From an uncultured cyanobacterium (GTDB lineage: Bacteria > Cyanobacteriota > Cyanobacteriia > CAKZMO01): a stretch of DNA of 64,000 nucleotides. The position numbers and the translations under genes were made by a program. The DNA is taken from NCBI GenBank assembly GCA_963719515.1, contig CAVRCJ010000003.1:128001-192000 (forward strand), read 5' to 3'. Shown here in pieces: positions 57,633 through 59,839 of this stretch; the first letter of the stretch is position 1; each line of letters begins with the position of its first letter. Below the pieces are notes generated by a model. It was not told the DNA's origin. It did no database searches and worked only from the letters and a program-made list of their open reading frames with translations.

Positions 57633-59839
57633 CTACCGCAAATTTAGCTCTCCGGTTTCCTGCAGGGCGTGGAGGCGGTGATAGATGCCGCCGCGATCTA
57701 ACAGCTGCTGGTGCGTTCCCACCTCGGCGATCGCCCCCTGGTCGAGCACCACAATCTTGTCGGCCTCCCGCACCGTGCTCAGGCGGTGGGCGATAATCAA
57801 GGTGGTGCGGGTGCGTGACATCCTCCCGACGCTGACAGCAAGCTGTACAGCGCGGGCTTCCTCAGTGACTCCCAGCTATTGCCGAGACATATCCTGAGAT
57901 AGGTTTATACTCCGCCTGATGCCCCACGGCAGAGTTTTGAATTTTCATCTCCGCGAGGGAGGATACGCACTATGTGTCGCAGATACATTTGCAAACTGAG
58001 GAACGGGTGACTTGCAGCTTTCGCCTACGGGCCCGTCACACTCTTTGCGGGGTGTATCACCTTGCTATCTCTATCATACCAACTGCTAGCCTCAGCGCTG
58101 AGCGCACTATCCGCTGTGCATCATTTTGCGGGCGCACTTCGGCTAGCGCGACTCTCATCCCGACGCACACCCTGACGGGTAGAGCGCGGGGCTTCCTGTC
58201 TAGTAGCTAAAATGCTGCCCATGGCCAGCTGAATCGCCCGCTCGGACTCGTAGTCCAAGCTAGAGGTGGCCTCGTCGAACACCAGCACATCGGGGTTGAC
58301 CAGCAGCGCCCGCGCAATGCCTAGCCGCTGCCGCTGGCCGCCCGACAGCCGCACCCCCCGCTCCCCCACCATGGTGCCGTAGCCCCGGGGCAGGCGGTGG
58401 ATGAAGTCGTCTACCCGGGCCACGCGGCAGGCTTCTTCTACGTCTTCTAAAGAAGCCTCGGGTCGCCCGTAGGTGAGGTTTTCTAGCAAGGTGCCGTTGA
58501 ACACGTCCACCTCCTGATGAACGATGGCCAGCCGTCTGCGGTAGCCCGTGATATCTAGGGTGCGGATATCTTGACCATCGATGCGGATGCCGCCCTGGTT
58601 GGGATTGAAATAGCGAAACAGCAGCTTCACCAGCGTAGACTTCCCCGAACCCGAGCGTCCCACTAGCGCCACGGTCTGGTAGGGCTCAATTAGCAGGTCG
58701 ATGCCTTTGAGGACGGGGCGCTCCTGCGCGTAGCCGAAGGTGAGGCGAGAAAACTCTAGCTTGCCGGTGAACTGGTATTGGGGAACGGCGGCGGGATCGT
58801 TGAGGCTAGCCGCATCCTCGCCCACGGGCTCTGCCATCAATTCGTGAAACCGCAGCATAGAGGCGTAGCGGCGGGCAAACACCTCGACAACCACGCTGAT
58901 GGGCTCTAGCTCCGAGTAGGCCATGCTGGAGATCGTCAGCGTCGTGACGAAATATCCCAGGGAGATCTGATTGTTGAGGGCCGCCACCAGCGTCAGCATC
59001 AAAATAGCAAACACGCAGCTTTGCACAAACGTTCGCTGCCAAGTAAACAGCACCACGTAGCCCCTATGGATACGATAGTTCACCATCTTAAACTCCCGCT
59101 GCAGCCGCTGCTGCTGGTGGGTCAGCTCTCGCTGTTCGGTGGCGAAGGCCTTTACGGTTTTGATATTGGTGACCACTTCGGCCATGCGGCTCTCGGTATT
59201 TTCGATGTGGTGGTCGAGCAGCGTCTCCTTGGTGATCAACCGCCGCAGGTGAGCCACAGTGAACCCCAGAATCAGGGTAAAAGAGACCAAAAACAGCAGG
59301 GCAATGCGCCACTCAATCCACCAAATTACCGCGAAGATACCGGCGATGCGAACGAGTTTGGGCACCAGCTGTCCCGCAACTTCGGGGTAGGTCCAGGTGT
59401 GGTTTGAGAGTCCTTTGGCGACGCGGCCCGCAATCCGCCCGGGATTGTTCTCATCGTAGAACTCCAAGGGCAGCGTCAAAATCTTCTCCATCACCCGCGC
59501 TGCTTGGTCCCGCCGCGATCGCAGGGGAATGTCCCAGTGGAACCAGGTGCTAATCCAGGGCTGTAGGGGGGCGCGCAGGACGGTGACCATAAACGTCAGG
59601 CCAAGCAGCACGATCAGTTCGGCGTTGGGGCTATTCTCGAGGCCCAGGGGAGCCGCGATCGCAACCAGTCCTCGGACTATCGCGTCCGTTGGCTGCTGAG
59701 ACAAGATGTTGAGAATTTGCCCCGTTGCATAGGGTATCAGCAGGTCAATAAGTTCGAAGACGCTGCTGGCTGCTATGCTGGCTATTCCCAAAGGCCAGTA
59801 TGGGCGAAAGTAGCTCAGCATATCTCGAAATGTAGCCAT
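57633..59839 (-). pseudogene. ABC exporter (fused TMD + ATPase) interrupted by a 392-bp insertion
   Basis: Walker A GRSGSGKS, LSGGQRQR and FDEATSSLD lie in the 5' part; H-loop IIAHRLSTV lies in a separate 3' fragment; removing 57815-58206 restores in-frame ..[16 protein letters not shown]. Confidence 0.88.
57815..58206 (-). mobile_element. Non-autonomous IS200/IS605-family element (PATE-like)
   Basis: Inserted immediately 3' of TTAG; ends GGAGGATGTCAC; no target duplication; related subterminal hairpins GGAAGCCC(C)GCGCT...GCGTCGGGA at both ends. Confidence 0.82.

Follow-up and report, generated by a model that had tools for sequence, protein, structure and literature searches.

The 64,000-nucleotide stretch of cyanobacterial DNA analysed here (the window) carries a 392-nucleotide element on its minus strand (58206..57815) that we read, with a probability of about 0.8, as a protein-free member of the IS200/IS605 group. 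It is likely moved in trans by TnpA, and it likely expresses from its own promoter a leader-plus-omegaRNA transcript that would load a borrowed TnpB against the empty allele. The interior of the element has two parts, which are a 120-nucleotide omegaRNA core and a separate, conserved leader of ~130 nucleotides. Judging from the literature covered, what is new here is this leader, a conserved domain that is predicted to fold and that precedes the guide RNA in a gene-less lineage.

The element, its copies and its host gene

There are 53 full-length copies of the element in the genome that holds it (G000), as recovered by BLAST against that genome, and their identity is 96.7-100%. These copies make the boundaries of the element exact. 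TTAG is located directly before all 53, TTTAG before 47 of them, and GTCAC is always the terminus. The bases that flank the copies on either side are unrelated, and therefore there is no target duplication. A sequence-only reading of this DNA had proposed a mini-element at 57815..58206 on the minus strand, inserted after TTAG without duplication of the target, and had suggested searching the genome for other copies and inspecting each insertion for TTAG. The copy set bears out all of these points, as does an empty site in two genomes of the same genus (G001 and G002). The TTAG tetranucleotide itself (58207..58210, minus strand) is host DNA and is both the predicted left cut site of TnpA and the predicted TAM of TnpB.

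Subterminal hairpins are found at both ends, as had been noticed before, and the element lacks terminal inverted repeats and a transposase. No tnpA or tnpB gene is contained within the 392 nucleotides, again as claimed earlier, and only traces remain, from the final ~35 codons of tnpB and the final ~11 of tnpA. The left end (nucleotides 1-60; 58147..58206, minus strand) includes a subterminal hairpin at 58196-58158. In a sister copy, these nucleotides are identical at 60/60 positions to a resident 1483-bp element that carries only tnpB and at 55/60 positions to an element with both tnpA and tnpB. The left end of the window copy differs from that of the sister copy by one base.

The window copy cuts a gene for an ABC transporter permease/ATPase of the MsbA-like family (57633..59839, minus strand) after codon 544 of 604, and thereby removes the last 60 transporter codons. 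Excision of the 392 nucleotides yields a single open frame of 604 codons, so the earlier statement that removal restores the host frame is correct. Four genomes of the same genus were searched for the orthologue. It is uninterrupted at the insertion position in two of them (G001 and G002), where ...SILG reads directly into TRTT..., and TTAG plus the right flank therefore corresponds to the empty allele. In G004 only the downstream part of the orthologue was matched, and it was not seen in G003.

An ORF of at least 150 codons is interrupted by only 8 of the 53 copies (3 sense, 5 antisense), in contrast to 240 of 399 random TTTAG sites. Thus, copies in genes appear to be mostly purged, and the ORF-interrupting copies give no sign of splicing rescue. 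These counts bear on whether the element is a self-splicing or self-excising intron, similar to an IStron, whose removal from the transcript would spare the host gene. The sense orientation of the window copy inside its gene would fit such an element. However, the scarcity of copies in long ORFs speaks against it, there is no Rfam intron match, and the last base of the element is C, whereas group I introns end in G. Given this and the ratio of 3 sense to 5 antisense copies among the 53, membership in the IStrons or group I introns was rejected, and we give the intron-like explanation almost no credence.

There are 19 longer elements in the same genome with both ends the same, and TTAG precedes every one of them. 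Sixteen carry only tnpB (1483-1612 bp) and three carry tnpA and tnpB in divergent orientation (1780-1801 bp). A full TnpB frame with three RuvC motifs is present in 17 of the 19, and the other two are frameshifted. Representative proteins score above the cut-offs of NF040570 (RNA-guided TnpB) and NF033573 (IS200/IS605 transposase). Full-length parents with intact tnpA and tnpB, which the sequence-only reading had proposed looking for, are therefore resident in this genome. The foot of the left hairpin reads GAAGC in the 72 TTAG-targeting elements that were scanned in this genome and GAAGT in all six TTAA-targeting elements (422/424 bp), which is the pairing expected under the IS608 DNA-guide rule.

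Two further features were observed among these longer elements. Immediately inward of the left end, at nucleotides 60-95 (G000:C3:50486-50521 and the C10 parent), lies a hairpin whose sequence differs between tnpB-only and tnpA+tnpB elements. By eye its pairing is kept (GGTCGTC/GACGGCC versus GGGTGCT/AGCACCC), and it overlaps the 3' end of tnpA. In addition, the 1612-bp tnpB element at G000:C13:120428-118817 contains near its left part a 129-bp insert with inverted ends, which is probably a nested miniature element.

The omegaRNA scaffold and the proposed cycle

The last 120 nucleotides of the element (57815..57934, minus strand) can be aligned with the ends of tnpB elements and make up the right end and the scaffold of a TnpB omegaRNA. 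Within this part, stem 1 (57934-57910) has a GTGG loop that is predicted to form a pseudoknot with the terminal TCAC (57818-57815), and it is followed by predicted central stems (57898-57861) and a predicted right-end hairpin (57860-57824). A 36-pair structure was drawn from the window copy and compared among eight gene-less and five tnpB-linked ends, where 94% of cells are paired and 13 pairs are changed on both sides. None of 500 shuffles scored as high, and slid controls gave 34-45%. Because the aligned sequences are related and the structure was taken from one of them, these values are support for the fold and not a probability. The four pseudoknot pairs are invariant and are therefore uninformative on their own. 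Stem 1 covaries between the element (CTCTGCC/GGCGGAG) and the resident parent (AGGGCT/AGCCCT), and it is located on the 5' side of the end hairpin required by TnpA. The comparison with omegaRNAs that had been suggested earlier thus comes out in favour of a shared scaffold.

Two long-range pairings that the same reading had described fare less well. Both segments of the first, TTCCTCAGT (58003-57995) and ACTGAGGAA (57866-57858), are present, but their pairing is unsupported. Its mean probability across the predicted ensemble is 0.0008, versus 0.995 for a local CTCAG/CTGAG stem, and homologues read TTTCCTTG or TTTCCAAG in place of the first segment. For the second, which would join an internal GTGAC to the terminal GTCAC, GTGAC does occur at 58039-58035, but homologues read GTGAT or GTTGAC there. 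In the modelled structures, neither complementarity is probably part of the real fold.

An extended -10-like box (TG-G-TATGAT, TGGTATGAT) is located at 58073..58081 on the minus strand, exactly where it had been pointed out, and its predicted start is at ~58066. In 15 of 16 homologues a TAnnnT motif is present, at a distance that is constant within each subfamily, although its middle bases vary. A consensus scan of the element strand returned no -35 box and no full promoter. Three RNA runs, each with 5% of words, gave contigs from ~90%-identical relatives that cover parts of the element and do not show ends or strand. One contig spans the scaffold and 25 nucleotides past the right end, and DNA or read-through could also give such contigs. 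Two contigs (X1 and X2) also cover the left end and 181 nucleotides of host flank, as DNA or read-through would. The copies, the TTAG sites, the same-ended parents, the scaffold covariation and the -10 box all agree with the core of the sequence-only reading, which was a non-autonomous IS200/IS605 element with its own promoter and an omegaRNA guided by its flank.

The cycle that we propose is as follows. Resident TnpA would peel and paste the element by way of the shared end hairpins, a step to which the dispersed near-identical copies and the empty orthologous site point indirectly. The -10 box would drive an RNA of ~250 nucleotides that runs into the right flank, and the last 120 nucleotides of the element would take on the omegaRNA fold and associate with TnpB supplied by the 17 intact same-ended tnpB copies. 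TnpB would then cut TTAG plus flank on chromosomes that lost the element or never had it, and repair from the filled copy would restore the element. In the case of the window copy, TnpB would cut the intact ABC allele. In many cyanobacteria the chromosome is present in several copies, and these would supply both the target and the repair template. Peel-and-paste by TnpA, cutting of vacated sites by TnpB and subsequent repair are known from IS605 biology, according to the accessible text of 10.1101/2023.03.14.532601. The predicted guide of ~16-20 nucleotides lies in the right flank within the host ABC gene (57795..57814, minus strand), a placement that follows from TnpB biology as given in the available parts of PMC10097598 and PMC10691335. 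Guides aimed at other host sites were considered and rejected, since only 2 of the 53 match TTAG plus 12 nucleotides elsewhere (with at most one mismatch) and neither match extends.

A conserved leader before the guide RNA

The leader (57935..58066, minus strand) comprises ~130 nucleotides that are predicted to form a long irregular hairpin and then small hairpins. Its outer helix pairs GATACA (58058-58053) with TGTATC (57987-57982) and covaries across homologues, and its conserved core (58037-58009) ends in a 3-bp stem with a variable loop. A first covariance model, built from four sequences, matched 10 of 151 genomes of the class, among them G000, and in another family it matched 6 of 151. 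By covariance-model search, the leader is found in 13 other genomes that represent five families. We inspected 17 leader loci, including 5 of the 8 in one genome (G083). Neither tnpA nor tnpB lies within up to 1.5 kb of any of them, every locus has an omegaRNA-like right end that belongs to one of two types, and a left end is visible at 14.

In most homologues the core reads GAC-CGACCCGTA-GGC-loop-GCC-GCAA-GTC-CCCCGTT and is near-invariant except for the loop of 3-4 nucleotides. The outer 6-bp helix has a probability of at least 0.67 in 13 of 16 homologues folded singly. All six pairs form in 15 of 16 homologues through nine different sequence pairs, versus an average of 3.2 of 6 for 162 cross-subfamily combinations, in a comparison where the offsets were selected so as to give the best helix and only three subfamilies are represented. 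Folding energies of the leader are no better than those of shuffles (z from +0.8 to -2.0). A paired change of the outer helix to GATGCA/TGCATC is seen in G002 and in RNA contigs X1 and X2. UACG and UUCG loops, which are RNA-specific tetraloops, interchange in the hairpins downstream of the leader helix.

These features also bear on the idea that the conserved folds work as single-stranded DNA during peel-and-paste and that no guide RNA is made. Consistent with this idea, the G-T wobbles are biased towards the top strand, the one that TnpA excises, and the RNA contigs do not demonstrate expression. However, a -10 box is held at a fixed position before the leader, the layout of stem 1 and the central stems is that of an omegaRNA, with compensatory changes that preserve these stems, and tetraloops of the RNA type replace each other. 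We therefore regard a purely DNA-level role for the folds as quite improbable for the element as a whole.

The distribution of the leader was examined with several searches. A second leader model (R2) matches exactly the 53 copies in G000, and it has no match in six tnpB loci or in six other gene-less elements. It found no new homologue in 16 genomes of the same order and 57 of other orders, and it gave three weak matches (E 0.003-0.05) outside of any element context. The proposal that the leader copies a structure of the tnpB mRNA was rejected because R2 matches neither the six tnpB loci nor any place in G000 outside the 53 copies. The leader-core pattern has exact matches in 2 of 401 genomes of the phylum, G000 included, and has no viral match. 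BLAST with the element interior against 16 genomes of the same family gave matches in G002 and G004 only, and a pattern made of the left end plus the upstream cassette retrieved two records from the genome collection. A 424-bp family of gene-less elements has a 30-nucleotide stretch in common with the leader (1 of 1000 shuffles as high), but it is unmatched by R2 and is therefore not counted as a leader homologue. The motif common to the 392- and 424-bp families, used as a pattern, gave seven metagenome matches, all in unrelated context, and no viral match. Rfam contains no match for the element or leader at E<=5 or E<=10, a leader homologue gave four chance-level matches only (E 1.1-7.6), and there was nothing for the other gene-less families either. 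Compared by eye, the core showed no apparent fit to the hammerhead, HDV-like, fluoride-riboswitch or SRP motifs.

At two loci, L115 (G102) and L118 (G127), leader and scaffold are located at the same site with the same right flank and no recognisable left end, and the end hairpin shows a compensatory change. These may be immobilised RNAs with a fixed guide.

TnpB makes its own guide by trimming its mRNA, on the 5' side of the RNA, as described in the accessible text of PMC10278001. A gene-less element has no tnpB mRNA as a precursor, and we take the leader as a likely stand-in. It would be a folded, probably protein-bound 5' module that protects the orphan RNA until TnpB binds and trims it, and in our judgement this function has a little under an even chance among those considered for the leader. 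A role as independent cargo or decoy is possible but doubtful, a role at the DNA level is unlikely and self-cleavage is more unlikely still.

Taken as an explanation of the whole element, cargo would mean that the leader is an RNA with a separate task, for example as a regulator or as a decoy or aptamer that binds a protein of the host or of a transposon, and that the omegaRNA is only its vehicle. Several observations are compatible with this. The leader core is better conserved across the five families than the attached scaffolds are, it occurs with two types of scaffold and with several different promoter regions, and leader and scaffold persist at the shared G102/G127 locus described above. 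Moreover, a matching TnpB is often not found in element-bearing genomes. Inspection of 30 of the 38 matches revealed a tnpB with the same scaffold in one of five other such genomes (G489, with an internal stop), and for the second scaffold type none of nine further loci is tnpB-linked. The genomes searched are draft assemblies. A missing partner could reflect these drafts, loading by TnpBs that are more distantly related or the persistence of elements after the loss of their helpers, and the element may also have a TnpB-independent role. Against cargo, the scaffold is fused to the leader in 17 of 17 inspected loci, and at none of these loci does the leader stand alone or before a host gene. 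The confinement of model R2 to the 53 copies within G000 points the same way. Antisense pairing of the leader to tnpA or tnpB mRNA is at the level of shuffles, and no conserved small ORF is found in the leader. Overall, we consider cargo an improbable explanation of the element.

Lineage, related families and known systems

Similarity between the element and the resident parent is limited to nucleotides 1-68 and ~275-392, and nucleotides 69-270 have no counterpart in the parent. An unrooted tree of the scaffold (123 columns, driven largely by stem 1 and a 6-nucleotide linker) separates eight gene-less ends from seven genomes from five tnpB-linked ends, the resident one included, by a branch with 98/99 support. 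The scaffold thus groups with gene-less ends, while the left 60 nucleotides of a sister copy match the resident element, and this leads us to propose that an old lineage without genes swaps its left ends with those of local elements. By sequence, the family would be a member of that lineage that adopted the left end of a local IS605.

The competing view is that the element derives from the resident IS605 through a recent loss of internal sequence, and that its interior is a neutral leftover. Its left end is indeed near identical to that of the resident element, and PATEs can arise by deletion of the core, as the available portion of PMC3119063 describes. However, this origin does not account for nucleotides 69-270, for the grouping of the scaffold with gene-less elements of other genomes or for the covariation of the leader across families, and we judge it very improbable.

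A hairpin-rich upstream cassette (58082..58146, minus strand) lies between the left end and the -10 box, and it is common to other gene-less families in G000 and not to the parent. Its local alignment with the 443- and 450-bp families scores above 1000 of 1000 shuffles, and there is no similarity to the 424-bp family by local alignment.

There are several other gene-less IS605-type families in this genome. They include C3:734706 (450 bp, 18 copies), C10:332545 (422 bp, 4 copies) and C3:566940-567363 (424 bp, 2 copies), as well as C1:7104 (443 bp), C4:101934 (440 bp), L154 and L155. These families follow the same modular plan, with a left end, an upstream cassette, a TAnnAT box, a long-hairpin leader and an omegaRNA end. 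The 440-, 443- and 450-bp families have the upstream cassette in common with the 392-bp family, but their leader and scaffold are different, which indicates a mixing of modules. Copies of the 392- and 450-bp families adjoin at C3:734610 and C3:734706-735156 and at C11:33952 and C11:35166, and such adjacency is expected because the TTAG target is shared. Three gene-less elements, L021 and L035 (G008) and L096 (G074), have another leader that contains ACCTTGACAAC, which we take to resemble the boxA antitermination motif. This leader is joined to two scaffold types, and L021 and L035 have no Rfam match. The presence of several unrelated leaders in G000 hints that gene-less elements may have invented such modules repeatedly.

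Pieces of ~97 bp that consist of the right end only are found at unrelated loci (L234, L235, L239, L240, L243, L246, L237 and L249; G050, G022 and G074). Each is located directly after TTTAG and starts at the internal TCAC position of the full element. These pieces resemble scars that would be left if TnpA excised from the left end up to a cryptic TCAC within the element. An excision scar of this kind would separate the TAM from the guide and escape re-cutting.

It is tempting to see in these families a long-lived cyanobacterial lineage of transposons that consist of RNA modules and ends only and can exchange their left end, promoter, leader and omegaRNA. The leader would then be a new class of functional RNA, a protein-binding module for loading or protection through which an orphan guide RNA captures TnpB made by other elements. 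We put this broader proposal forward as tentative.

Gene-less elements of this kind have precedents. The PATEs of Haloquadratum walsbyi, according to the available text of PMC3119063, similarly lack a transposase and terminal inverted repeats, have near-terminal palindromes that are similar at both ends, make no target duplication and form homogeneous, high-copy families related to IS605-type ends. That text does not describe a promoter, a guide RNA or a conserved internal RNA domain, and some PATEs are simple core deletions, whereas the 392-nucleotide element is not. Also related are the PATE-like elements of Geobacillus stearothermophilus reported by Meers et al. (10.1101/2023.03.14.532601), which in the accessible text are protein-less IS200/IS605 elements that often encode omegaRNAs on which TnpB acts in trans. 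They share with the element the same logic of peel-and-paste plus cut-and-copy. The accessible text of that preprint describes no extra 5' RNA domain, cross-genome gene-less lineage or end swapping, and its PATE figure could bear on the novelty of the leader.

Standalone OMEGA omegaRNAs, as presented in the available parts of PMC10691335, are also mobilised without an effector or transposase and have a compatible effector in trans in the same genome. For these RNAs function in trans was shown, whereas for the 392-nucleotide element it is predicted, and no leader is described in the parts available. With PATEs, omegaRNA-bearing PATE-like elements and standalone omegaRNAs all in print, a guide-carrying gene-less element is therefore of a known kind. 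In the openly readable literature covered, we found no description of the leader or of a comparable cyanobacterial family, and the accessible portions of PMC13565253 and 10.1101/2022.10.12.511977 do not describe the leader. The biological role of standalone omegaRNAs is called unknown in the available text of PMC10691335. The presence of 53 copies with 53 different guides beside 17 intact TnpB genes (~3:1) makes this role testable.

The ISDra2 and Ama TnpB omegaRNAs provide the structural comparison (PMC10097598 and PMC10278001, in their accessible parts). Their scaffolds of ~106-116 nucleotides with a subterminal hairpin resemble the 120-nucleotide scaffold of the element, and their pseudoknot between stem 1 and the 3' end, flank guide and 5' trimming are predicted alike for it. 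For ISDra2 specifically, the scaffold has 116 nucleotides, includes this pseudoknot and is preceded by a dispensable 5' part (PMC10097598, same parts). The leader points to a step that is hidden in tnpB-linked RNAs, namely the survival and loading of a guide that does not come from the mRNA of the nuclease itself, and if it improves stability or loading it would be a natural add-on for engineered TnpB guides. In the ISDra2 and Ama RNAs, as far as these sources describe them, the 5' extension is tnpB coding sequence and is dispensable for cutting, whereas the 5' extension of the element is non-coding, separately conserved and equipped with its own predicted promoter.
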